Positions 1,958-27,374 of a DNA stretch of 30,712 bases are shown one piece after another. The notes under the pieces are model-generated. The model had not been told where the DNA came from. It did not search any database and saw only the letters and a list, made by a program, of their open reading frames with translations. The stretch's first letter is position 1. Every line of letters begins with the position of its first letter. A program made the position numbers and the translations under genes. This DNA is from a virus. Its lineage: Duplodnaviria; Heunggongvirae; Uroviricota; Caudoviricetes. The DNA lies in IMG/VR virus record IMGVR_UViG_2872698443_000006. One strand, given 5' to 3'.

Positions 1958-4405
1958 TTAACCGTCATGCATCATGCTGGCACGGGCGCGCGCACGTTTA
2001 TCCCGCTCGTATTTTTCGAGCGCATCCTGTAACTGGCGGTCAAGCTGTGTCCCCGGCGCAGTACCACCCGTCAGGCTGATGTGATATTCGTTTTTACTCT
2101 GGTCCACATAAGAGCGGCCAGCCGGTGCCGTGACCGGCTGATAAGCCTGATAGCCTGCATAAGAGCTGGTCGCCGGAATATAACCACCGGTGCCATACGT
2201 GGCGGCATGAGTTCTGGCGGCGGTCTGGTCAAGTGTGTCTGACTCTTTGTTGATGACCCCGAGCTTTTCCAGTACCCAGTCAATACCGCTGCGCAGTTTG
2301 TTGAACGCATTAAGCGGCAGCATCAACGCGTCAGCCAGTGCCTGCCCGAACATGACACCCGTGTCACGACAACGGTTCAGGGTGTCCTGGGTGGCTTTAA
2401 CCGGAGCAATCAGGTTTGTAAACCACTGCCACGCGGCCTGTAACTTTTCGCCCAGCCAGTCAAACACCGGTTTCAGTGGCGTGAACAGTTCCCCCACCGG
2501 CGCAAATGCCGCTTTCAGCCCTTCCACCACACCGCCAAAGAATGCGCTGACAGGCTCCCAGTATTTACGGATAAGCAACGCCCCGGCGACAATTGCAGCC
2601 ACCACGGCCACAACCGGCCAGCTAATCGCCCCGATGGCCGTCATAACAGCACTGCCAACCGTCGTGAAGATTGCCCCCATTGCGCCTGCTGCCGCGATAA
2701 TGGCATTGATGCCGGTGATAACCGGCCAGGCTACAAGACCAATGGCACCGATGATGCCAATAAGCGCCAGCGCGCCACCGACAATGAGGCCGATGGTTGA
2801 CGCCAGTGATTTGTTTTTCTGGATCCAGCCGTCGAGTTTTAACACATACTTTGTGGCCGTCTGAGTGAGCTTACGCAGTGCGCCTTCCTGCTGGTCAAAC
2901 AGGTCTGTCCCCACCGCCTCATAAGCGGACTGAAACTCCTTAAAGTCACCGCCGAGGTTATCCTGCATGATTTTAACCAGCTCTTCCGTTTTACCGTCCG
3001 AGGCTTTCAGCGTGGCGGTCAGCTTATCCAGCTTTCCGCTTGCAGCCGCTGCCAGTAAAACGTTCGCTGATTTCAGGGCTTCCTCACCAAAAATGGTTTT
3101 AAGGTATTCCCCCTTCTGAGACGTTCCCAGCTTGTGTTTATCAAAGCTGGCCTGAATCTCTTTCAGAATGGTGAACAACGGACGCATATTTCCCTTTTTG
3201 TCCGAGGTTTTAACGCCAAGCTCTTTGAGTGCTTCCCATGCTTTCCCTGTCGGAGCCTGTAATCGGGTGACAACGGCACTACTACCAGTACCCGCCATTG
3301 ACCCCCTGATGTTATTGTCATGTAGCACACCGGTCATGGCTGCTGCCTGCTCAAGACTTACACCTGCCGTTCTTGCGACCGGGCCAAGATAAGTCAGTGC
3401 ATCACTGAGTCCCTGAAAATCAGCCGCCGACTTATTCATCGTTGCCGACAACACATCGCCCACATGGCTGACATCATCATTTGACAGTTGAAAAGATGCT
3501 TTAGTCCCCAGCAACAGTTGCGCGTTTTCTTCCATCGACCGCTGATTCGCCAGCGCCATATTCAGCGTGACCGGCGTTGCCGCCTGAATAGCCGCAGCAT
3601 CTCCACCCGCTTTCGCAATGATAATCTGCGCACCGGCCGCATCATCTGCCGAGGCGGCGGTGTTGTCACCGAGCTGGCGCGCCTGCCTGCGGAGTGCAGC
3701 CATTTCGGCGGAGTCTTTTGCCACTCCGAGCACAGCCTGTAATTCTGAGTTTTTCTGCGCAAACTCATAACCGGGCATCAGCAGCTTAACTCCGGCCATC
3801 GTTCCCGCCGCCGCAATCCCCACACCGGCAGAGCCCACCGAGGCCATATTTCCGGCCAGTTCCTTGCCTGCCTGATAACGCTGTTTTACTGCGTTAAGTT
3901 TTGCCTGTTGCGCACTGACACGCGCCAGCGCGTCACGCTGACGGTTAAGCTGTGCGGTGGTTTCACTGATACGGTTTTTCAGCCCCTGCTCATCATGTGC
4001 AAGATTGCGGGTATTAATTCCCACAGCGGCCAGTTCCCGCTGCTGGCGTTTAACGGAATCTGTCAGGCGGTTATATTTCGCCTGTAAGTCCTCCGCCGCA
4101 CGCTTTGCGGATTCCAGCACTTTCGCCTGAGCACGGGTCGGACGTTCGGTGTTTTTAAACTGTGTGGCAAGGGCTTCGGCCTCCTGCCGTGCCTTTTCAA
4201 GTGCATGACCAGTCACGGCGAGCTGTGCACTGGTCTTGCGGAATCCCTCAATACGGGATGCCTGACCGTTCAGCTCGCGCAGTGATTTTTGTGTTTCCCG
4301 GATATCCCCCGACAGCGATTTGCTCGCTGTGCGGATGGATTTAAACGGGCGGGATGCCTGGTCAACAGCCCTGAGCAATACCTGTAATTTTACATTGTTA
4401 CTCAT
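1958..4405 (-). CDS. T: Tail tape measure protein (gpT)
   Basis: 815 aa; coiled-coil-rich N-terminus, Gly/Ala-rich hydrophobic central region (GLIVGGALALIGIIGAIGL...), typical tape measure; ATG at 4403-4405. Confidence 0.9.
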   Translation of the reverse strand: MSNNVKLQVLLRAVDQASRPFKSIRTASKSLSGDIRETQKSLRELNGQASRIEGFRKTSAQLAVTGHALEKARQEAEALATQFKNTERPTRAQAKVLESAKRAAEDLQAKYNRLTDSVKRQQRELAAVGINTRNLAHDEQGLKNRISETTAQLNRQRDALARVSAQQAKLNAVKQRYQAGKELAGNMASVGSAGVGIAAAGTMAGVKLLMPGYEFAQKNSELQAVLGVAKDSAEMAALRRQARQLGDNTAASADDAAGAQIIIAKAGGDAAAIQAATPVTLNMALANQRSMEENAQLLLGTKASFQLSNDDVSHVGDVLSATMNKSAADFQGLSDALTYLGPVARTAGVSLEQAAAMTGVLHDNNIRGSMAGTGSSAVVTRLQAPTGKAWEALKELGVKTSDKKGNMRPLFTILKEIQASFDKHKLGTSQKGEYLKTIFGEEALKSANVLLAAAASGKLDKLTATLKASDGKTEELVKIMQDNLGGDFKEFQSAYEAVGTDLFDQQEGALRKLTQTATKYVLKLDGWIQKNKSLASTIGLIVGGALALIGIIGAIGLVAWPVITGINAIIAAAGAMGAIFTTVGSAVMTAIGAISWPVVAVVAAIVAGALLIRKYWEPVSAFFGGVVEGLKAAFAPVGELFTPLKPVFDWLGEKLQAAWQWFTNLIAPVKATQDTLNRCRDTGVMFGQALADALMLPLNAFNKLRSGIDWVLEKLGVINKESDTLDQTAARTHAATYGTGGYIPATSSYAGYQAYQPVTAPAGRSYVDQSKNEYHISLTGGTAPGTQLDRQLQDALEKYERDKRARARASMMHDG

Positions 4406-7337: not shown

Positions 7338-7799
7338 GGTGCTCCAGCTATTGGCGTTCCGTTCTTCTGGCCGTCCGCCGCAATGCCAGATACCGTAATC
7401 GAAAGCTGGTCCGGCATGGTGTTTTTGAAGTTCAACGGCGCGAAATTCTCTGCCACTGATTACCCTGTGCTGGCGAAAGTGTTTCCTTCGCTGGTATTAC
7501 CTGAAGCCCGCGGTGATTTCATTCGTATCTGGGATGATGGTCGTGGTGTAGATAGTGGACGTGGATTACTTAGTACGCAGTCTGACCTGATGAAACAATT
7601 TACTTTGCAATACTACGGTCCTTCTGCTGGTACTGGAACAAGAACGGTTTTCGCCCTCCAGAGTAATGCGAACGGCATATATACGAGTGGTATTAGTCAG
7701 AATGATGGTAGTGGCACCGCTGCGGCTTTTAATGTACCAGGCGGCACCGAAACACGCCCACGTAACATTGCATTCAACTTTTTAGTAAGGGCTAAATAA
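7323..7799 (+). CDS. Alternative tail-fibre C-terminal (variable) segment, expressed only after inversion
   Basis: Frame open from the crossover site: ...FLNVGLGEGAPAIGVPFFWPSAAMPDTVIESW...; inversion would fuse H ...LAYL to GLGEGAP... in frame (the codons spanning the core are cTT in H and gTT here). The ATG at 7284 is probably not used. Confidence 0.65.
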   Translation, partial: VGLGEGAPAIGVPFFWPSAAMPDTVIESWSGMVFLKFNGAKFSATDYPVLAKVFPSLVLPEARGDFIRIWDDGRGVDSGRGLLSTQSDLMKQFTLQYYGPSAGTGTRTVFALQSNANGIYTSGISQNDGSGTAAAFNVPGGTETRPRNIAFNFLVRAK

Positions 7800-8392
7800 T
7801 GAAACCTGTTTTTGATAAAAATGGGCTGGCTACAGTGCCGGGTGATATGCGTTGTTTTTATTATGATGCAGTAACGTCTGAATATACTGGCTGGTCTGAT
7901 GAATATATTAATACTGGTGTAAGTATGCCCGCCTGTTCCACTGGTATTGACCCGGGCGAATACATTCCGGGGAAAGTGGCAGTATTTACGGGTAAGGGAT
8001 GGAGCCATGAAGAAGACCACCGCAATGAGACTGCTTACTCAATCGAAAATGGCGCAGCTGTTACAGTGGATTATATCGGTGCCATCAAAGACGGTTATGT
8101 CACGCTTTCACCGTTAACGCCATACGATAAATGGGATGGTGAGAAATGGGTGACAGATACTGAGGCACAGCATAGTGCCTCAGTAGACGCGGCAGAAGCA
8201 CAGCGCCAGTCGCTGATTGATGCTGCAATGGCTTCCATCAGTCTGATTCAACTGAAATTGCAGGCCGGGCGGAAGCTGACGCAGGCAGAAACAACCCGAC
8301 TTAACGCCGTGCTGGATTACATTGACGCGGTGACGGCAACAGATACCAGCACCGAGCCGGATATCATCTGGCCTGAACAGCCGGAGGCGTAG
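7799..8392 (+). CDS. Alternative tail fibre assembly protein (Tfa)
   Basis: 197 aa; C-terminus ...LNAVLDYIDAVTATDTSTEPDIIWPEQPEA shares the conserved Tfa C-terminal motif with the other tfa (..FDYLDALEMVDISSAPDIEWPTPP). ATG overlaps the TAA of the preceding segment. Confidence 0.75.
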   Translation: MKPVFDKNGLATVPGDMRCFYYDAVTSEYTGWSDEYINTGVSMPACSTGIDPGEYIPGKVAVFTGKGWSHEEDHRNETAYSIENGAAVTVDYIGAIKDGYVTLSPLTPYDKWDGEKWVTDTEAQHSASVDAAEAQRQSLIDAAMASISLIQLKLQAGRKLTQAETTRLNAVLDYIDAVTATDTSTEPDIIWPEQPEA

Positions 8393-18990: not shown

Positions 18991-19163
18991 TGTCAGGAGT
19001 CCTGAATAGTGATTAGAGGAGTCACATGTCGGCATCAGTTTCCCGACGATGCGCATCCTCCGCCATCAGTCCCGGATGGCTTATCACTGACACAACAGCA
19101 CCTTAGCGAATCGCGGGACGCGACTCAGTAGCCTTGCCGTGTATTCATCACGGCGAGGTATTC
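18991..19163. promoter_or_regulatory. Divergent late promoter region (PO leftward, PP rightward), Ogr-dependent by analogy with P2
   Basis: 173-bp gap between divergent O and P starts. I looked for the P2 TGT-N12-ACA upstream element and found only partial dyads (GTCGG-N10-CCGAC at 19028-19047; ACAACA at 19089-19094), so exact promoter positions are not assigned. Confidence 0.4.
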
Positions 19164-20936
19164 ATGACCATCACCACAGACACCACTCTTTTACACGACC
19201 CGCGTCGTCAGGCGGCGCTGCTGTACTGGCAGGGGTTTTCCGTGCCGCAGATTGCCGCCATGTTGCAGATGAAACGCCCGACGGTGCAGAGCTGGAAACA
19301 GCGCGACGGCTGGGACAGCGTTGCCCCCATCAGCCGTGTCGAAATGAGTCTGGAAGCGCGGCTGACCCAGCTCATCATCAAACCGCAGAAAACCGGCGGT
19401 GACTTCAAGGAAATTGACCTGCTCGGACGCCAGATTGAACGACTGGCGCGGGTCAACCGCTACAGTCAGACCGGCAACGAGGCAGACCTTAATCCGAACG
19501 TCGCTAACCGCAACAAAGGCGGGCGTCGCAAACCGAAAAAGAATTTTTTCAGTGACGAGGCCATCGAAAAGCTGGAGCAGATTTTCTTTGAGCAGTCTTT
19601 CGAATATCAGTTGCACTGGTATCGCGCCGGACTTGAGCACCGCATCCGCGACATCCTGAAATCCCGCCAGATTGGCGCGACGTTTTATTTTTCCCGCGAG
19701 GCGCTGCTGCGCGCCCTGAAAACCGGTCATAACCAGATTTTTCTGTCGGCCAGTAAAACGCAGGCGTATGTGTTCCGCGAATACATCATCGCCTTTGCCC
19801 GTCTGGTTGACGTTGACCTGACCGGTGACCCGATTGTCCTGAGCAATAACGGCGCAAAACTGATTTTTCTCGGCACCAACTCCAACACCGCACAGAGCCA
19901 TAACGGCGACCTGTACGTCGACGAGATTTTCTGGATCCCGAATTTTCAGGTACTGCGTAAGGTGGCATCAGGTATGGCCTCACAGAGCCACCTGCGCTCG
20001 ACCTATTTCTCCACCCCGTCCACGCTGGCGCACGACGCCTATCCGTTCTGGTCGGGTGAACTGTTCAACCGGGGACGCGCCAGTGCCGCTGAACGCGTGG
20101 AAATCGACGTCAGTCATAACGCCCTTGCCGGTGGGCTTCTCTGTGCGGACGGCCAGTGGCGACAGATTGTCACCATTGAGGACGCGCTGAAAGGCGGCTG
20201 CACGCTGTTCGACATTGAGCAGCTCAAACGTGAAAACAGCGCCGACGATTTTAAAAACCTGTTCATGTGTGAATTTGTTGACGACAAGGCGTCGGTGTTC
20301 CCGTTCGAGGAGCTGCAACGCTGCATGGTCGACACGCTGGAAGAATGGGAAGACTATGCGCCGTTTGCCGCCAATCCGTTCGGCTCCCGCCCGGTATGGA
20401 TTGGTTACGACCCGTCACACCGTGGCGACAGCGCCGGATGCGTGGTGCTGGCACCGCCGGTGGTGGCCGGTGGCAAATTCAGGATCCTTGAGCGTCACCA
20501 GTGGAAAGGCATGGACTTTGCCACCCAGGCAGAATCCATCCGCAAACTCACCGAAAAATATAACGTTGAATACATCGGGATTGATGCCACCGGCCTCGGT
20601 GTCGGTGTGTTCCAGCTCGTGCGCTCGTTCTATCCCGCCGCTCGCGATATCCGCTACACGCCGGAAATGAAAACCGCAATGGTGCTCAAGGCAAAAGACG
20701 TTATCCGCCGTGGCTGTCTGGAATATGACGTCAGCGCCACCGACATCACCAGCTCGTTTATGGCTATCCGCAAGACCATGACCAGCAGCGGACGCAGCGC
20801 CACCTATGAGGCCAGCCGCAGCGAGGAAGCCAGCCACGCCGACCTCGCCTGGGCGACCATGCACGCCCTGTTAAATGAGCCACTCACCGCCGGTATCAGC
20901 ACCCCGCTGACATCCACCATTCTGGAGTTTTACTGA
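19164..20936 (+). CDS. P: Terminase large (ATPase) subunit P
   Basis: 590 aa from ATG 19164 (MTITTDTTLLHDPRRQAALLYWQGFSVPQIAAMLQ...), GAGG RBS; the ORF-track start at 19134 is a TTG extension. Confidence 0.9.
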   Translation: MTITTDTTLLHDPRRQAALLYWQGFSVPQIAAMLQMKRPTVQSWKQRDGWDSVAPISRVEMSLEARLTQLIIKPQKTGGDFKEIDLLGRQIERLARVNRYSQTGNEADLNPNVANRNKGGRRKPKKNFFSDEAIEKLEQIFFEQSFEYQLHWYRAGLEHRIRDILKSRQIGATFYFSREALLRALKTGHNQIFLSASKTQAYVFREYIIAFARLVDVDLTGDPIVLSNNGAKLIFLGTNSNTAQSHNGDLYVDEIFWIPNFQVLRKVASGMASQSHLRSTYFSTPSTLAHDAYPFWSGELFNRGRASAAERVEIDVSHNALAGGLLCADGQWRQIVTIEDALKGGCTLFDIEQLKRENSADDFKNLFMCEFVDDKASVFPFEELQRCMVDTLEEWEDYAPFAANPFGSRPVWIGYDPSHRGDSAGCVVLAPPVVAGGKFRILERHQWKGMDFATQAESIRKLTEKYNVEYIGIDATGLGVGVFQLVRSFYPAARDIRYTPEMKTAMVLKAKDVIRRGCLEYDVSATDITSSFMAIRKTMTSSGRSATYEASRSEEASHADLAWATMHALLNEPLTAGISTPLTSTILEFY

Positions 20937-21970
20937 TGAGCAAGAAAAAAGGGAAAACACCGCAACCTGCGGCAAAAACAATGACCGCCAGCGCCCCGAA
21001 AATGGAGGCATTCACCTTTGGTGAGCCGGTGCCGGTACTCGACCGCCGTGACATTCTGGATTACGTCGAGTGCATCAGTAACGGCAGATGGTATGAGCCA
21101 CCGGTCAGCTTTACCGGTCTGGCAAAAAGCCTGCGTGCTGCCGTACATCACAGCTCACCGATTTACGTCAAACGTAATATTCTGGCCTCGACATTTATCC
21201 CGCATCCGTGGCTTTCCCAGCAGGATTTCAGCCGCTTTGCGCTGGATTTTCTGGTGTTCGGTAATGCGTTTCTGGAAAAGCGTTACAGCACCACCGGTAA
21301 GGTCATCAGACTGGAAACCTCACCGGCAAAATATACCCGCCGTGGCGTGGAGGAGGATGTTTACTGGTGGGTGCCGTCCTTCAACGAGCCGACACCTTTC
21401 GCGCCCGGCTCCGTGTTTCATCTGCTGGAGCCGGATATTAATCAGGAGCTGTACGGTCTGCCGGAATATCTCAGCGCCCTTAACTCTGCCTGGCTGAATG
21501 AGTCGGCCACGCTGTTCCGCCGCAAGTATTACGAAAACGGCGCTCATGCCGGATATATCATGTACGTCACTGATGCCGTGCAGGATCGCAACGATATCGA
21601 AATGCTTCGCGAAAACATGGTCAAGTCGAAAGGCCGCAACAACTTTAAAAACCTGTTTCTCTATGCCCCGCAGGGGAAAGCTGACGGCATTAAAATTATC
21701 CCGCTCAGTGAAGTGGCAACGAAGGACGATTTTTTTAATATCAAAAAAGCCAGCGCCGCTGACCTGCTGGACGCGCACCGCATCCCCTTTCAGTTGATGG
21801 GCGGCAAGCCGGAGAACGTCGGGTCGCTGGGTGATATTGAGAAAGTGGCAAAGGTCTTTGTCCGCAATGAGCTTATCCCGTTACAGGACAGGATCCGCGA
21901 GATAAACGGCTGGCTCGGTCAGGAGGTCATCCGCTTTAAAAACTACTCACTGGACACTGACAACGGCTGA
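20936..21970 (+). CDS. Q: Portal (capsid portal vertex) protein Q
   Basis: 344 aa MSKKKGKTPQPAAKTMTASAPKMEAFTFGEPVPVLDRRDILDY...; ATG overlaps the P stop (TGATG). Confidence 0.9.
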   Translation: MSKKKGKTPQPAAKTMTASAPKMEAFTFGEPVPVLDRRDILDYVECISNGRWYEPPVSFTGLAKSLRAAVHHSSPIYVKRNILASTFIPHPWLSQQDFSRFALDFLVFGNAFLEKRYSTTGKVIRLETSPAKYTRRGVEEDVYWWVPSFNEPTPFAPGSVFHLLEPDINQELYGLPEYLSALNSAWLNESATLFRRKYYENGAHAGYIMYVTDAVQDRNDIEMLRENMVKSKGRNNFKNLFLYAPQGKADGIKIIPLSEVATKDDFFNIKKASAADLLDAHRIPFQLMGGKPENVGSLGDIEKVAKVFVRNELIPLQDRIREINGWLGQEVIRFKNYSLDTDNG

Positions 21971-22301: not shown

Positions 22302-23000
22302 TTAATTCAGTTTTTTATACCGTGACCACCCTGATTTAACTGAGTTACGTTTAGATTCTTCCTCTATGCTTTGATACTCACTCTGTAATATTGAGAGAAA
22401 GTCTTTCCGCATCTTTAACTTGTATTGTTTCATTGCTGTTTCAATGATGAAATGCCCTTTTTTAAAGGATGGTCGACCTTCATATTTCAACCCTGACAAT
22501 AGAAATCTCAATCTAGGGTTTGACTCCATCCCAAATGCAAACTCCCACATATCGCTTATATTACATAGCGTATAAGGTATTGGCTTACCTCCCTGTTTAA
22601 GGTTATTAATCTTTAATGGTTCCTTAACATCACTAAACTTCATATAAACATTAACAATAGTACACTTCACACCGTGTAAATTTGTCACTTTGATATTAGC
22701 CAAGTCTTGCGATGAAAGCTTATCTGCTTTTTTTGCCGTAGAGGTCGTATATATAGGCGCAAAAACAACGTCAACTTTCTCTTTGCCTGACATCATCGCA
22801 TAATAACTTGTAAATAATGAAACCCCCACAGCCGCGAGAGTAGCCAATCCTGACACCCACCCTCCTAGCATTGTCCAAAATGCGACCTTGCTATTATTTT
22901 CACTCTCGCCCCATGCCCATTGAACTCCACCCAACACAAAACCAAATGCGAACATAAACAAGCAAAGACATATTATTAAAGCTATCCCACAATACTTCAT
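22302..23000 (-). CDS. Cargo gene: uncharacterised membrane-anchored protein (two N-terminal TM helices plus about 160-aa soluble domain)
   Basis: 232 aa; ATG 22998-23000 with AAGGA 9 nt upstream; TM1 IALIICLCLFMFAFGFVLGGV, TM2 FWTMLGGWVSGLATLAAVGVSLF; AT-rich codon usage unlike the rest of the prophage; no family recognised. Confidence 0.7.
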   Translation of the reverse strand: MKYCGIALIICLCLFMFAFGFVLGGVQWAWGESENNSKVAFWTMLGGWVSGLATLAAVGVSLFTSYYAMMSGKEKVDVVFAPIYTTSTAKKADKLSSQDLANIKVTNLHGVKCTIVNVYMKFSDVKEPLKINNLKQGGKPIPYTLCNISDMWEFAFGMESNPRLRFLLSGLKYEGRPSFKKGHFIIETAMKQYKLKMRKDFLSILQSEYQSIEEESKRNSVKSGWSRYKKLN

Positions 23001-23204
23001 GAAACAAATCCTTGATATAGAAAATCACAATATTTTCACACAACATTTAAACGAAATTTAAATCATCAAGCACTCTAATTACAAACAAAACAACGCACAA
23101 CACATCAAAAAAAATCATGTAAAACAAAAAAAATAGACATGCTTTAAGATCATCTTTCAATGCCACCGACACAATATCAAACTTCAGTATCGGTGGCATC
23201 ACCA

Positions 23205-23936
23205 TCAATTATTTAGTATCGAAACTATTTCACCCGTTTTCACATTAACACGCGCTGCTATTGTTTGCTTCACGACACCACCATAGGCATTAGTACCGCG
23301 AAATGTGGTTTTCACAATGGCGTGAGGGTCTTTATTCAGGATTAAATGATACACTGTTGACACATGTTTATAAGATGAATCATCGTTCATATTCTCTTTA
23401 ATTAACTTTTCCAATGGTCGATAAGAACCATCCCAACCACTAAAATTACTCTGAAATGTATCAAGGTTGATTTTATTGTTTAGTGATTGCGGATCTTTTT
23501 CATAATCATTAAAGCACCATCCAAGAACATCACCGAGTTTCAACTCATCATCTTTGGTAAAAGTATATTCACTCATGCAGGCATAAAATGCATCTGATGC
23601 GGTGACTGGCACTTCCTTAAAATCAATGTAACTATTTACAATATCGTGTCGAGTTTTCTTTGGCTCGTTCCGATATTCCTTGAGTGTTTTTCCACCATAT
23701 TCGAATGTTTTTTGGACTTGGTGTTCTGCAACGGTTGATGTTTCAGTTTTAGCAACTGGCTGGCTTTTTTCTGTTGGATAGAGTATTGAACCAATTATGC
23801 TCAATACAAAACCTCCTCCGAGATAAACCGCACTTGCACGTTTACGGTTTGGCATCCGCACCAGTGATGGTTTGATTAACCCGATGAAAAAAGCAACGAA
23901 AAAAGCGAGTGATAGAAAAGCGATTACAGTATCCAT
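23205..23936 (-). CDS. Cargo gene: uncharacterised membrane-anchored protein (two N-terminal TM helices plus about 190-aa soluble domain)
   Basis: 243 aa from ATG 23934-23936 (AAAGGA 5 nt upstream; the ORF-track start at 23960 is GTG); TM1 TVIAFLSLAFFVAFFIGLI, TM2 AVYLGGGFVLSIIGSILY; AT-rich; no family recognised. Confidence 0.7.
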   Translation of the reverse strand: MDTVIAFLSLAFFVAFFIGLIKPSLVRMPNRKRASAVYLGGGFVLSIIGSILYPTEKSQPVAKTETSTVAEHQVQKTFEYGGKTLKEYRNEPKKTRHDIVNSYIDFKEVPVTASDAFYACMSEYTFTKDDELKLGDVLGWCFNDYEKDPQSLNNKINLDTFQSNFSGWDGSYRPLEKLIKENMNDDSSYKHVSTVYHLILNKDPHAIVKTTFRGTNAYGGVVKQTIAARVNVKTGEIVSILNN

Positions 23937-24165
23937 AGCTATCCTTTTTGCATCATCCACATAAAAAATCGACCTTATGTTAGCAACAGGAAGCTTACTT
24001 TTGAATATTTGTAAGTTGTTAGCTTTAGCTCTCCGAGCTAACTCCTTTCAACCGTCAAAAACCAGCACCAACGCAGTAAAAATATTACTGTCAACTAACG
24101 CCTCGCTTCGCTCGTTGTTCAACCCCGCCAGCCCTGAAAACAAGTTTCACGACTGGCGGCGTTCT

Positions 24166-24372
24166 CTATCGTCTGCGTGGTGGTGGCATAACTCTGGATT
24201 GACCGATATGGTTAAACCGCCCGTAATTATCCCGGACTATTTCGGCACACCCGACCAGCTCGTCAGGCGTCAGATTTTCGTTAACCATAATCTGCTGTAG
24301 ACGGTGAACAATAGCCATCAGCTTGATATTTTTAGTTTTATGTTGCGGTATCTCGCCTGGTATTCTGTGCAT
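24166..24372 (-). CDS. Possible small protein (68 aa) coupled to the upstream ASCH-like gene
   Basis: ATG at 24370-24372 overlaps the TAA of the upstream gene (TAATG); no recognisable motif; could be non-coding. Confidence 0.3.
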   Translation of the reverse strand: MHRIPGEIPQHKTKNIKLMAIVHRLQQIMVNENLTPDELVGCAEIVRDNYGRFNHIGQSRVMPPPRRR

Positions 24373-24827
24373 TATCCAAGCCACCCGTTTTGCTGTGCAC
24401 GCTCCATCTGTTCATCTGAATAGTTCCATGCTCCATCCGTGGCAACCATTGCCCCGCCAGACATCCCCGTCTCTGGTTCATACATAACAGAAAGGCCGAG
24501 CTGATGCATAATTTCATGATTAATTCTGAATACCAGACCACGCTCACTAAGTTCTTTCCAGTTCACAATCTCATATGCGCCTGTATTAAGCAGCTCAATA
24601 CTTAGCAAGACATAATCTTCCAGCCAGTCTGACAGGTCAGTAACATCTGTTATCCGGGCTTCAACCTTTCGCCCCGTATACACACCCTGTACCCATTCAT
24701 GCAAAATCAACGTGTCCCCGCGCTCATAATTACGGTCATTTTTCCGAAACTCTGCGCGTTTCTTTCCTTCCAGCACAAGGTCAAAATATTTGGCGTGCAG
24801 CTTTACCTCGTGAATTTTTGCCATCAT
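24372..24827 (-). CDS. ASCH/PUA-like (DUF3850-like) domain protein with C-terminal HExxH motif
   Basis: About 151 aa from the ATG pair at 24825-24827 / 24822-24824, overlapping the A stop (ATGATGG). N-terminus KIHEVKLHAKYFDLVLEGKKRAEFRKNDRNYERGDTLILHEW fits the ASCH-like pattern as I recall it; C-terminal FRINHEIMHQLGL contains HExxH. Confidence 0.6.
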   Translation of the reverse strand: MMAKIHEVKLHAKYFDLVLEGKKRAEFRKNDRNYERGDTLILHEWVQGVYTGRKVEARITDVTDLSDWLEDYVLLSIELLNTGAYEIVNWKELSERGLVFRINHEIMHQLGLSVMYEPETGMSGGAMVATDGAWNYSDEQMERAQQNGWLG

Positions 24828-27109
24828 TTCCACTCCATTACTGTTGAGAATCCCGGCCACTCATCAGCGACCGGATACGTGAATTTTTTTCCGTCATAAT
24901 TTACGGTCGCGCCACGCGCCAGCGCCTCAAGCTCCCATCGCTGCGGCCTGATACCGTTCTGAGCAAGGTCAACGCGGATACGGGTAATTTGCATTCTTTC
25001 CGACCGGGTCAGTCTGGCCGATGGTGCAATTTCATGTAGTTTTAACGGGCTTCCGTTTCTCTGCTGACGGTTTGGCGTTCGCAGGTCGTGTTTTAATGCG
25101 CCCCTGAGCGCCCTCACGACCTCCGGTTCATTCCATTCAATAACTCCGTCATCAACCAGATTAAGCACGGCTGCGGCGTGCTCAGAAGGTGTGGGAGCCG
25201 GTAACGAAGTATCACCACCGGTGAGCTTTCCACAGTTATTGACAGGACTCCGAGGCGCGGCGATGCCGCTTTTTAAAGTCAGAGGCTCAACGACCGGAAC
25301 TTTCGGCACAATGCGCCAGTCCGTCGTTCTGGTGATATGAATATGACGCGCGCCGAGATGCGGCGCGTAAATGCCGACCACTCTCTCGACTTCTTCCTCG
25401 TACTCGTTAACTTCATCCGACGGACTACGGGCGACCCTGACAGTCTGACAATCGCGCGGGACATTTGCCCCACCCTGCGCGCTGATATACAACGCAAAAT
25501 CACCACTGTCTGCGGCGGCGCGTGCAGCCTCGACGCGCTCGTCAAACTCATCAGCAATGCTGACGCCGCGAGGCAATTTGCGTAGTTCACGGTAAGCCCC
25601 CATTGTCGGCAGACCAACCGTTTTAAATTGTGGGATGCGCCACGTTGACGCCCATGCGGTAACAGCCGCAGCAGTGTCTTTCAGCGGTCTGCCGGTATCG
25701 TTATCGAGCTGACCATCCAGTGCATAGCCATCGATGTTTTTTGAGATGTATTTCGCGATATACCCCGCAGCACCGCCCTGGTTAAGGTGTTTTGCCTGAA
25801 AACGGTTTCGCGCGGCTCCTCTTTCGTCGCCATCCTCTTTGAGCGCATAGCGACGCATGATTTCGATAATCTGGTTACGCTGGCGTGGATTACAAAAAAG
25901 CATCATATGCCAGTGCGGCGTTCCGTCGTGGTGTGGCTCGACGACACGCAAACCGTAGACCTGTAAATCATTATCCTTGAATGCCGTGCGCATCAGGCTC
26001 CAGATATGGCAGAGATAACGCTGCGCATCCTTTGGATTAAATGCCTCATCGTTCCAGCCGTGATTTAGCTGGACGGTTTTACTTTCGCCTTTTCCGACCT
26101 GACGTGTCGGGTGATACTTTGACGGCGCGGTAAGCGTGATAAACATCCCCACATCACCCTCTGCGGCGGCGTAACGCTCAATACCGGCAATGGTGTTCAT
26201 CAGCTCCATCCGGCGAATTTCAGGATTAGAAATACTGCCCATCACCTTACTGATAAGGTCGATGCGCTCGCCGGTTTCCCTGTTTTCAAGGTCACACGAT
26301 TTAAGAAATTCCAGATTTGCCTGGCGGCGTGCACGCACATCACGAATGGCATGTTTACTGGCATAAGGAGAACGGTCTTTATTCACCTCCCCGACAGCAA
26401 TCAGTAACGCCTCATGCCAGCGCATACGCTGGCCTTTGAGCTGATGAGTCCACCACTCATCGTTAAACAGACGGGCAATGGCAGAATATGCCTGCCTCGT
26501 GGTCATCTGTCCTTTACGGTATTTTTTCCAGTAAAGCGGGGAAATATTGAAAGCACGTGCAGCGCCAGCAACATGACCATAGAGGTGAGCCTGCGCCTCA
26601 TCCGTAAACAGCGATTCTTTTTCGCCATGTGCATCCACCCAGGCATCGCTGAGTTCCTCATACATCATGAAAAGCTGCGATGAGATACGGGCGGCAAACT
26701 TTTTCAGCTCCTTGTCATTCATTCCCGGCAGGCGCGCATAGTGGTCACGCTCTGCCAGAAACAGCAACGACGCGTCGGTGTTCATTTCATGGCGCTGATT
26801 CACACGCTCAATGCGCGGCCATAAACGACGCTGAAAAGTGGATGTGAGGAAATAAAACCCGTGCACCGGGCTTTTATTGCGCCGGATGTAGTCATAGCGT
26901 GAAGTAAACAGCGAGCGCAAAAAGTAAGGCAGGCGGTTAATCGTGGATAAAACACCTTGCACCTGACGCATCTCGTCACGTGTAAGGGGTCTTTCGCGCC
27001 CGACGGCCTCGCGTGGCGCGTTCCATGCATAAGCACCGGTAAACATCTTACCGGTGCCTGCGGCAAATGCTGACGGAGGGACAAAACGCCCGGAGGCTTT
27101 AACGGCCAT
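24824..27109 (-). CDS. A: Replication initiation protein A (rolling-circle nickase)
   Basis: 761 aa from ATG 27107-27109 (MAVKASGRFVPPSAFAAGTGKMF...); the ORF-track start at 27151 is a TTG extension; size and N-terminus match my recollection of P2 gpA. Confidence 0.9.
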   Translation of the reverse strand: MAVKASGRFVPPSAFAAGTGKMFTGAYAWNAPREAVGRERPLTRDEMRQVQGVLSTINRLPYFLRSLFTSRYDYIRRNKSPVHGFYFLTSTFQRRLWPRIERVNQRHEMNTDASLLFLAERDHYARLPGMNDKELKKFAARISSQLFMMYEELSDAWVDAHGEKESLFTDEAQAHLYGHVAGAARAFNISPLYWKKYRKGQMTTRQAYSAIARLFNDEWWTHQLKGQRMRWHEALLIAVGEVNKDRSPYASKHAIRDVRARRQANLEFLKSCDLENRETGERIDLISKVMGSISNPEIRRMELMNTIAGIERYAAAEGDVGMFITLTAPSKYHPTRQVGKGESKTVQLNHGWNDEAFNPKDAQRYLCHIWSLMRTAFKDNDLQVYGLRVVEPHHDGTPHWHMMLFCNPRQRNQIIEIMRRYALKEDGDERGAARNRFQAKHLNQGGAAGYIAKYISKNIDGYALDGQLDNDTGRPLKDTAAAVTAWASTWRIPQFKTVGLPTMGAYRELRKLPRGVSIADEFDERVEAARAAADSGDFALYISAQGGANVPRDCQTVRVARSPSDEVNEYEEEVERVVGIYAPHLGARHIHITRTTDWRIVPKVPVVEPLTLKSGIAAPRSPVNNCGKLTGGDTSLPAPTPSEHAAAVLNLVDDGVIEWNEPEVVRALRGALKHDLRTPNRQQRNGSPLKLHEIAPSARLTRSERMQITRIRVDLAQNGIRPQRWELEALARGATVNYDGKKFTYPVADEWPGFSTVMEWK

Positions 27110-27374
27110 ATGAGCCAAAAGCCTCTGAACAACGCTTGCTGAGTTGCTCAACCTGCACGTTTAAATCAGCAAAAGACTTTGCGCTTCCGGTCAGAATATC
27201 GTGATGCATCAGGCCTGAAACGAGCTGGCTTAATTTCGGGTAATAACCAACCACCGCCAGCCATTCCTGACCGGCGTTTTTACCGCTTTCCGCTCTCTTT
27301 TTCTCGTGGAGAATAAACTGAAAGCTGTCACTGGTAACGACATAACGTTCGCCAATTTCAATACGAATACTCAT
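27099..27374 (-). CDS. Small early protein (P2 orf83-like position), unknown function
   Basis: 91 aa, ATG 27372-27374 overlapping the upstream stop (ATGA). Confidence 0.55.
   Translation of the reverse strand: MSIRIEIGERYVVTSDSFQFILHEKKRAESGKNAGQEWLAVVGYYPKLSQLVSGLMHHDILTGSAKSFADLNVQVEQLSKRCSEAFGSYGR

Follow-up and report, generated by a model that had tools for sequence, protein, structure and literature searches.

The subject of this report is a membrane-protein gene, here called T, on a 30,712-nucleotide stretch of viral DNA (IMG/VR record IMGVR_UViG_2872698443_000006; "the window" below is this whole stretch), a P2-like prophage that here matches Peduovirus P24A7b at 99.7% identity. T is the orthologue of orf97 of coliphage 186 and a member of the phrog_3403 family, and as such is a known but mechanistically unexplored phage-exclusion gene and no new two-gene system. 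From the phenotype recorded for the 186 orthologue, the predicted location of the protein and the kind of locus that carries it, we lean, though not heavily, towards T being a single-gene superinfection-exclusion protein of the prophage that acts at the level of the cell envelope. A preliminary description of the locus had listed T as an uncharacterised membrane protein, a label that the orthologue and its recorded block of 186 infection take away. Feature coordinates are collected in Table 1, and comparison loci are cited by L numbers.

The name "Orf97" stands on close relatives of T in phage records and was traced to coliphage 186 by tblastn of phage genomes. T and 186 Orf97 (NP_052294) align over 243/243 residues with 79% identity and no gaps (E 7e-153), and at the codon level the two genes are 86/89% identical at positions 1/2 and 48% identical at position 3; this low third-position against high first- and second-position identity shows purifying selection on the T protein. 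Base composition differs between them (GC 38% in T vs 46% in 186 orf97, GC3 30% vs 48%). The feature note on orf97 in the 186 record NC_001317 (GenBank/RefSeq) reads "expression from plasmid blocks 186 infection", and the Orf97 phenotype is taken here from this one-line database note on the 186 copy; a literature search on orf97, its accessions and the 186 SOS operon returned only passing mention in papers on Salmonella BTP5, and no paper was found that names the accessions of the T protein or of its neighbour, here called N. The two phages share more than the protein sequence, as the layout of two transmembrane (TM) helices plus soluble domain, the position between gene A and cos, and a hairpin element after the stop codon are the same in both. 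They differ in that T of the window sits in a P2-type (Peduovirus) backbone, after a DUF3850/orf91 gene and a small open reading frame (ORF), has neither tum nor a perfect LexA box, is preceded by a decayed t95a stem and is followed by N as an extra cargo gene.

Domain libraries add little to this identification. Scans with Pfam, NCBIfam and PADLOC gave no model matching T, with no Pfam match at E <= 1; PADLOC-DB v2.0.0 gave 0 families for T and N at E <= 1, the same scans found no model for N or for distant carriers of the T module, and PHROGs matches for T and N were to families of unknown function only. A PDB sequence-profile search with the T alignment returned nothing relevant, and Foldseek of T against the PDB gave no match at E <= 0.001, the weak matches being NTF2-like only. 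The preliminary description had foreseen that a profile search might place T in a known family; in spirit this came about through the orthologue, although no Pfam, NCBIfam or PADLOC model covers it.

The locus itself is a familiar one. Like 186 orf97, T is found between replication gene A and the cos/portal side of a P2/186-type phage: after portal gpQ come the cos-proximal region and a low-GC island (36-42% vs 52-58% in its surroundings) that carries two minus-strand genes, T and N, and this is the gpA-portal (tin/old) cargo hotspot of a P2-type prophage. The gpA-portal interval of P2-like phages was shown to be a reservoir of anti-phage systems, validated ones among them, and also holds non-defence cargo such as partition systems and toxins (Rousset et al. 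2022). In Table S5B of that work the T-family protein is P2-hotspot "system 12" (210 occurrences, no Pfam domain, "2 TM"), the 12th most abundant entry with 210/18,150 E. coli loci, and the N-family protein is "system 30" (119 occurrences, "2 TM"); the sequences of both are absent from its tested-system tables, so that both are untested entries. Since the locus is the P2 tin/old hotspot, a defence framing of T is reasonable. If T does exclude phages, entry 12 would gain a function. For now the finding mainly ties a 1990s observation on orf97 to modern hotspot catalogues. T occurs in 84/5,426 complete E. coli genomes.

Hydropathy places the two TM helices of T at residues 3-21 and 34-52, and an AlphaFold model (35-sequence alignment, mean pLDDT 83) at residues 2-21 and 31-52; with the ORF and 157 homologues (best down to E 5e-159) these bear out the earlier claim of a real 243-residue gene with two N-terminal TM helices. 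The short loop between the helices is highly conserved and strongly basic (5 K/R, 0 D/E), and P23, V26, M28, P29 and R31 are invariant in the family alignment. Beyond the linker the model has a confident all-helical domain at residues ~79-163, then a helix and four antiparallel strands at residues ~164-243. T thereby shows the whole Orf97-family architecture: two TM helices, a soluble part of ~165-190 residues, a Cys pair and the WDGSYRPLEK / F.G.N.YGG motifs. In the model two neighbouring helices are joined by a turn, and the invariant C120 and C141 stand 7 residues to either side of it, a geometry expected for a disulfide staple.

Given the charge of the loop, the positive-inside rule predicts that the loop is cytoplasmic and that the soluble part of T is periplasmic. 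Four further observations support this placement: an Oxalobacter homologue of residues 75-242 bears a lipoprotein signal (LAGC), many distant homologues consist of a Zn-ribbon, one TM helix and the C-terminal module, a Xenorhabdus copy exchanges the 2-TM anchor for a Zn-ribbon and one TM helix, and C120 and C141 are invariant with the geometry expected of a staple. This Xenorhabdus copy (L019 5869-6618, Xenorhabdus sp. Sc-CR9), an Orf97-type soluble unit on a Zn-ribbon plus single-TM anchor, is an anchor swap within the close family. The preliminary description credited T and its neighbour with the same architecture, a likeness that turns out to be superficial, as the positive-inside rule puts the soluble domain of T in the periplasm and that of N in the cytoplasm. 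The soluble unit of T is predicted from the model to be an HdeA-like helical domain followed by a small alpha/beta module. Any resemblance to the periplasmic helical proteins HdeA, HdeB and YmgD would be one of fold only (6-16% identity, 6% to HdeA, no Pfam HdeA match and nothing significant in Foldseek), and it differs from them in that its cysteines, 21 residues apart, would staple a single helical hairpin.

In the mechanism that we propose, the two N-terminal helices would anchor T in the inner membrane with the short basic loop in the cytoplasm, and a flexible linker of ~25 residues would carry the two-domain soluble unit, a disulfide-stapled HdeA-like helical domain plus the small alpha/beta module, into the periplasm. 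Expressed T would exclude superinfecting phages of the 186/P2 type at an early envelope step, most likely the delivery of the genome across the periplasm and inner membrane; within the model, block of DNA entry is put forward with less confidence still than exclusion itself. T would then be a Sie-type function, analogous but not homologous to P22 SieA and T4 Imm/Sp. A block further out, with T altering or masking the lipopolysaccharide-core receptor of P2/186-type phages and so preventing adsorption in the manner of Cor or Llp, is very unlikely. It would suit the predicted periplasmic exposure of the T domain, the existence of lipoprotein versions of T (known receptor blockers are lipoproteins) and the recorded target, which is 186 itself, but an inner-membrane anchor with a ~25-residue linker would hardly reach the outer leaflet of the outer membrane, and neither Pfam nor Foldseek detected a glycosyltransferase, acyltransferase or other enzyme fold in T.

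Within its own hotspot T can be set beside Old, a nuclease/ATPase of P2, and Tin, which acts against T-even phage replication, both of them cytoplasmic. All three occupy the slot between gene A and cos as single genes that exclude, or in the case of T would exclude, other phages, whereas the P2 proteins are unrelated to T, which is predicted to face the periplasm. Closer in proposed manner are proteins that stop DNA entry (P22 SieA, T4 Imm/Sp, HK97 gp15); T shows no sequence or significant fold similarity to this class, and its inner-membrane or periplasmic location is a prediction from TM helices, loop charge, anchored homologues and the Cys pair. P2 and 186 are myoviruses that deliver their DNA via a contractile tail and not by P22-type ejection proteins. 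The K139 phages, a P2-related family, have in Glo a soluble protein that is not membrane-anchored. P22 SieA is described as a prophage-borne single-gene inner-membrane protein that excludes relatives of its carrier, blocks DNA injection with the ejection proteins gp16/gp20 as experimentally defined targets, and occurs as sequence types < 30% identical at one locus (PMC10883804). T is proposed to act in the manner of SieA, and diversified types at one locus resemble the pattern seen for the neighbour N (24-31% identity); SieA, however, has no detectable sequence similarity to T, and its step and targets are experimentally defined, the step for T being a proposal. The T4 envelope proteins Imm and Sp (Spackle) stop DNA injection by secondary phages, Sp acting on the tail lysozyme in the periplasm (PMC11436027). 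They are expressed in the phage's own lytic programme, as 186 orf97 is after SOS induction, but differ from T, which has no Pfam match at E <= 1, in size and domain make-up. Glo of Vibrio phage K139 is described as a periplasmic immunity-gene product of the K139 family linked to exclusion (Nesper et al. 1999, PMC4870250). We considered Glo as a homologue of T and rejected it, no K139 record being among the tblastn matches of the T soluble domain to phage records at E <= 1e-3, where the Vibrio matches were VHML ORF47 and Va_PF430-3_p42; Glo is an analogue of T and no relative.

Several points weigh against an exclusion role. The phenotype comes from the single database line on the 186 orthologue and was seen on plasmid expression, and an over-expressed membrane protein can block infection non-specifically; that the 79%-identical copy in the window behaves in the same way, and at which step, we infer by analogy. 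The 186 gene is SOS-induced and unexpressed in the lysogen; classical prophage immunity accounts for this no better than would protection of the cell once induced, or some other role tied to induction. Pfam and Foldseek gave no sequence or significant fold similarity of T to any characterised Sie protein, and a sigma-70 promoter scan gave fewer sites than in shuffles and none over threshold upstream of T. The C-terminal module may have a general envelope function, as it is found in 2,759 clusters and many phyla, in many cases with no identified phage context. Should T nevertheless exclude P2/186-type phages at the envelope, it would be a compact one-gene system in which to study how temperate phages with contractile tails are halted between outer and inner membrane, a step much less well understood than cytoplasmic defence. 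Genes of this kind bear on which hosts P2-like phages and P4-type satellites can infect, and are thus relevant to phage-therapy cocktails.

In NC_001317 the order is p95 (LexA-repressed promoter)-tum (antirepressor)-t95a (partial terminator)-orf97-t95b (terminator), and in 186-like phages orf97 is the distal gene of a LexA-controlled tum-orf97 SOS operon. In L005, L006, L008, L010, L018, L063, L064 and 186, T has upstream of it both tum and a perfect LexA box (mostly CTGTATGTTTATACAG); L007 has tum, the LexA box scan having covered the other 186-like loci. Neither a tum homologue nor a perfect LexA box is present in the window, where the nearest site, at 24408-24423, has 1 mismatch, or in the E. 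coli P2-type loci L001, L050 and L051. Membership of the SOS operon is a feature of regulation and not of the protein family, and the window copy of T, which lies outside such an operon, would have lost that control. The t95a stem (ACCCCATG-loop-CATGGGGT plus a T-run) lies ~25 nt before orf97; 186-like prophages have it intact, and it is decayed (CTTCCTG...CATAAGG) in the window and the other E. coli P2-type loci (comparison of window 23937-24000 with L005-L010/L018 and L055 3708-3739), which is consistent with a changed expression regime in the latter. With tum, the LexA box and the t95a stem lost, transcription of T in the window probably either runs on from the early (A) operon or starts at a weak promoter belonging to T. 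One promoter candidate picked out by eye upstream of T (TTCAAA-17-TGcTAACAT) is weak, overlaps the t95a terminator of 186-like loci and was not used.

Elsewhere T has other neighbours. In Brenneria (L011) it is flanked by a 186-type CI repressor and the integrase, all on one strand and with gaps of 85 and 52 bp, in Mixta (L017) after a helix-turn-helix (HTH) repressor and before the integrase, and in Xenorhabdus (L016) between a Gp49/HTH pair and ogr; among distant homologues, the Oxalobacter one adjoins a Cro/CI-type HTH gene, the Vibrio one an S24 CI-like repressor and that of a deltaproteobacterium an integrase. Genes that temperate phages express as lysogens or on induction are kept at such positions. 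The pair directly upstream of T in Xenorhabdus innexi (L016 5209-5836), at the ogr-proximal end of a P2-like tail cluster, is of toxin-antitoxin type, Gp49 (HigB-like)/HTH_3. That T might itself be a toxic effector, an abortive-infection membrane protein that blocks 186 by damaging the envelope or the membrane potential of the infected or over-expressing cell with no exclusion of DNA, is improbable in our view. TM proteins of hotspot systems have often been proposed as suicide effectors (Rousset et al.), the phenotype was recorded from plasmid expression, and a cell in which SOS has induced 186 orf97 is already committed to lysis. Against this, the conserved, structured bulk of T is the soluble two-domain unit, and that unit also comes in lipoprotein form or with one TM helix, which speaks against an anchor that forms pores or disrupts membranes; T of L011 is stably kept between CI and integrase, a lysogenic-operon position hard to hold for a partnerless toxin, and no conserved antitoxin-like partner stands beside T.

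An exhaustive profile search places T in a far larger set of proteins, with 2,759 representative clusters at E <= 1e-3 and 1,251 at <= 1e-10, ~100 of the 2,759 having the whole soluble unit and most others the C-terminal module only. The module, for which there is no Pfam, NCBIfam or PADLOC model, is ~45-55% identical across Proteobacteria, Nitrospirota, Bacteroidota, Planctomycetota, CPR bacteria, Bacillota and a Methanoregula metagenome-assembled genome, and its usual anchor is an N-terminal zinc ribbon plus one TM helix. Its consensus (T residues ~160-243; window 23208-23459; loci L022-L043) reads FSAWDGSHR.LE..IK..MNDP.SY.H..T...TTFRGKNAFGGVV. At five distant module loci 3/10 neighbour genes scanned had a Pfam match, and many carriers have no identified phage context. 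Full-length T, by contrast with the module, was found only on P2/186-type prophages or beside integrases and repressors; in GTDB, with one genome per species, its genera are Kluyvera, Citrobacter, Erwinia, Enterobacter, Chimaeribacter, Scandinavium, Brenneria, Serratia, Yersinia, Rahnella, Xenorhabdus and Mixta.

This distribution bears on a reading in which T is not a defence gene at all and serves the envelope physiology of phage or host, for example as an HdeA-like periplasmic chaperone, in stress protection or in induction and lysis. We hold this unlikely. The place of 186 orf97 in an SOS (induction) operon, the spread of the module through bacteria and at least one archaeon, often without identified phage context, and the non-defence cargo of the P2 hotspot (partition systems, toxins) all accord with it, whereas the only recorded phenotype is a block of phage infection, identity to HdeA is 6% with no Pfam HdeA match, and full-length T keeps to the prophage settings just given. 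A wider version of the exclusion reading is possible but doubtful: the periplasmic two-domain unit of Orf97/T may represent a large unannotated superfamily of envelope-exposed phage-exclusion modules with interchangeable anchors (2-TM, Zn-ribbon plus 1 TM, lipoprotein) and an undescribed mechanism, for instance periplasmic capture of tape-measure or tail-tip proteins of contractile-tailed phages, and recombination at a conserved ~70-bp hairpin that marks the cassette boundaries would carry the cassettes from P2-type to 186-type phages and back. If T does exclude P2/186-type phages, it would also give a first handle on a conserved extracytoplasmic module that occurs in thousands of clusters and is undescribed by domain libraries.

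The preliminary description had pointed to a second 2-TM gene about 200 bp away and left open whether the pair were two independent single-gene systems or a two-component system. The second gene is there, N, at 22302-23000 and 204 bp downstream of T, and pairwise and profile comparison agree with the stated lack of obvious similarity: paralogy of T and N was rejected at BLASTP E ~1 and an hhalign probability of 4.8%. N is predicted to have N-in/C-in topology and a cytoplasmic Ig-like/ApaG-like beta-sandwich with a C-terminal helix. Across > 12 genera, ~20 arrangements have T and no N, with T by itself or accompanied by one of at least 9 unrelated cargoes; T is the sole cargo in L005, L007, L012, L013, L014 and phage 186, and none of the GTDB full-length T loci holds an N-family gene; N occurs without T in 5 lineages (L044, L048, L056, L057 and L060, from Citrobacter, Serratia, E. 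coli, Enterobacter and a metagenomic lineage). On these counts an obligate T+N pair was rejected, co-occurrence across genomes being obligate in neither direction, and the two-gene option gives way to that of independent single-gene systems. T keeps 93-95% identity from one E. coli locus to another, the N proteins next to it share 24-31% among themselves, and DNA homology breaks at varying points in the last ~45 nt of T (query positions 689-728 of 732), a combination that indicates swapping of the slot and not co-evolution of a pair. The slot downstream of T in E. coli takes at least 7 cargoes, namely three N variants, a 198-residue protein with an FRG/PDC-S15 protein, and 260-, 429- and 224-residue proteins. 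We conclude that T and N are separable cassettes, and a functional interaction between them is not required by any of the evidence. That they so often adjoin is explained by the status of T, in effect part of the backbone of 186-like phages and of one P2-type sublineage, next to a cos-proximal slot whose content is exchanged.

The idea of a two-component membrane system, for example with T as a periplasmic sensor that signals to a cytoplasm-facing effector N, seems quite unlikely. An N-family gene directly follows T in 5-7 arrangements (the window/L004, L001, L003/L052, L063, L064 and phages BIS20 and S164, with one small ORF between the two in L064), the order T then N on the same strand is invariable where both are present, the predicted topologies are complementary (periplasmic vs cytoplasmic), and in complete E. 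coli genomes the two N types detectable by blastn are listed in genomes that also bear T. Yet another collection contains an E. coli contig with N and no T (L056), the arrangements with T and no N include phage 186, where the phenotype is recorded for orf97 alone, T and N show no co-divergence, unrelated cargo takes the same slot, any cargo inserted beside a near-backbone gene becomes its neighbour, and Rousset et al. catalogue the two as separate systems. N variants in the same slot are found at window 22302-23000 (-), L001 3288-3944, L003 266-964 and L052 4331-5029, and the motif MLGGWVSGLATLAAV in TM helix 2 is conserved. In L064 a second perfect LexA box (CTGTATATAAACACAG, 3179-3194) lies between T and a 96-residue ORF directly followed by N, and the N cassette of this 186-like prophage may by its sequence be SOS-inducible too. 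Other cargoes seen were a 198-residue protein with an FRG-domain protein (L050 3988-6356; PADLOC candidate PDC-S15, E 8e-98), the 198-residue protein being common to E. coli and Enterobacter loci (L050; L008 6816-7412), a 575-residue ORC/CDC6-like ATPase with a 185-residue 1-TM protein beside T in Rahnella (L015 6801-9510), and a SocA_Panacea-domain protein with a 191-residue partner upstream of N (L060 2394-3481).

An inverted repeat of 10 bp had been reported in the spacer between T and N and proves to be the perfect core (ATGCCACCGA/TCGGTGGCAT) of a hairpin with 13-nt arms of 92% complementarity and a 14-nt loop, which starts 6 nt past the T stop codon and folds at -25.2 kcal/mol (z = -4.4; 0/200 shuffles as stable). 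The element placed behind orf97 in phage 186 has in this hairpin (window 23150-23200) a diverged copy, and a better-conserved one lies upstream of T. The consensus of the ~70-bp element is AACGCCGCC.G...GAAACT...TTTCAG..CTGGCGGGGTTGAACAACGAG...GCGTTAG, and copies were found in 17 loci. It directly follows orf97 in phage 186 (L055 4507-4575) and 186-like prophages, and its place in E. coli P2-type phages, the window among them, is behind the small ORF upstream of T; it is on both sides of T in L001 (3946-4010, 4903-4986) and L054 (3277-3362, 4248-4295), and in L008 it follows two different genes (7475-7536, 7864-7933). The copies fold stably, with z from -3.8 to -4.4, and the two in the window keep the stem despite sequence differences. 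A search of Rfam with the hairpins produced no credible family, its single match scoring 20.9 bits vs a 60-bit gathering score. The element may be a joint at which cassettes recombine between hotspots of the 186 and P2 types, or else a structure at mRNA 3' ends. An ORF in the spacer (23047-23208, 53 residues, TTG start) overlaps the hairpin, is unannotated in the records inspected and was rejected as a gene.

ORF calling extends T to 23205..23960 (-), with a GTG start and 251 residues. The ATG at 23936, giving 243 residues, is the better start because phrog_3403 1-243/243 aligns to residues 9-251 of the longer ORF, nearly all homologues have 243 residues and begin MDT... or MEL..., RefSeq has the same 732-nt coding sequence in identical loci, and an AAGGA Shine-Dalgarno sequence sits 5 nt upstream.

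Table 1. Features of the T locus and its surroundings, in window coordinates.
Feature	Coordinates	Strand	Basis or remark
T, orf97-type gene, 243 aa, orthologue of coliphage 186 Orf97	23205..23936	-	stop codon 23205-23207; phrog_3403 E 3e-145, 243/243
Shine-Dalgarno AAGGA before ATG at 23936	23942..23946	-	read from sequence; AAAGGA conserved in upstream alignment
TM helix 1, aa 2-21	23874..23933	-	hydropathy, AlphaFold model
Inter-TM loop KPSLVRMPNRKR, predicted cytoplasmic	23847..23873	-	basic, highly conserved
TM helix 2, aa 31-52	23781..23846	-	hydropathy, AlphaFold model
Variable linker to soluble part, aa 53-78	23703..23780	-	pLDDT < 50 at residues 56-72; variable, gapped columns
C-terminal alpha + 4-strand beta module, aa ~164-243	23208..23447	-	motifs WDGSYRPLEK.IK, MNDDSSYKH, F.G.N.YGG; common to many phyla
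Hairpin after T stop codon (inverted repeat)	23160..23199	-	arms 23160-23172 / 23187-23199
Second, better-conserved ~70-bp hairpin copy, after stop of ORF 24166-24372, upstream of T	24080..24165	-	z = -3.85
N, separable cassette, 232 aa, 2 TM helices	22302..23000	-	phrog_16957; hydropathy
Terminase gpP	19134-20936	+	bounds hotspot on cos side
Portal gpQ	20936-21970	+	bounds hotspot on cos side
Small ORF, 68 aa, upstream of T	24166-24372	-	phage backbone
DUF3850/ASCH orf91-like gene	24372-24860	-	phage backbone; protein = DUF3850/ASCH + DUF7415, P2 orf91-like
Replication gene A (gpA)	24824-27151	-	phage backbone; whole upstream block 24166..27151

On the gene A side, the DUF3850/ASCH protein and the 68-residue ORF that follows it are kept together beside gene A in E. 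coli P2-type loci, the latter also being a separate cassette in an Enterobacter 186-like hotspot (L008 7628-7861), and the ASCH protein has a weak PADLOC match to PDC-M11B (E 0.024). In the bovine E. coli strains E94 and E92 (NZ_CP119740.1 and NZ_CP119734.1) the T-N locus is split by an IS5-family transposase, the match falling into two pieces and running ~1 kb longer.

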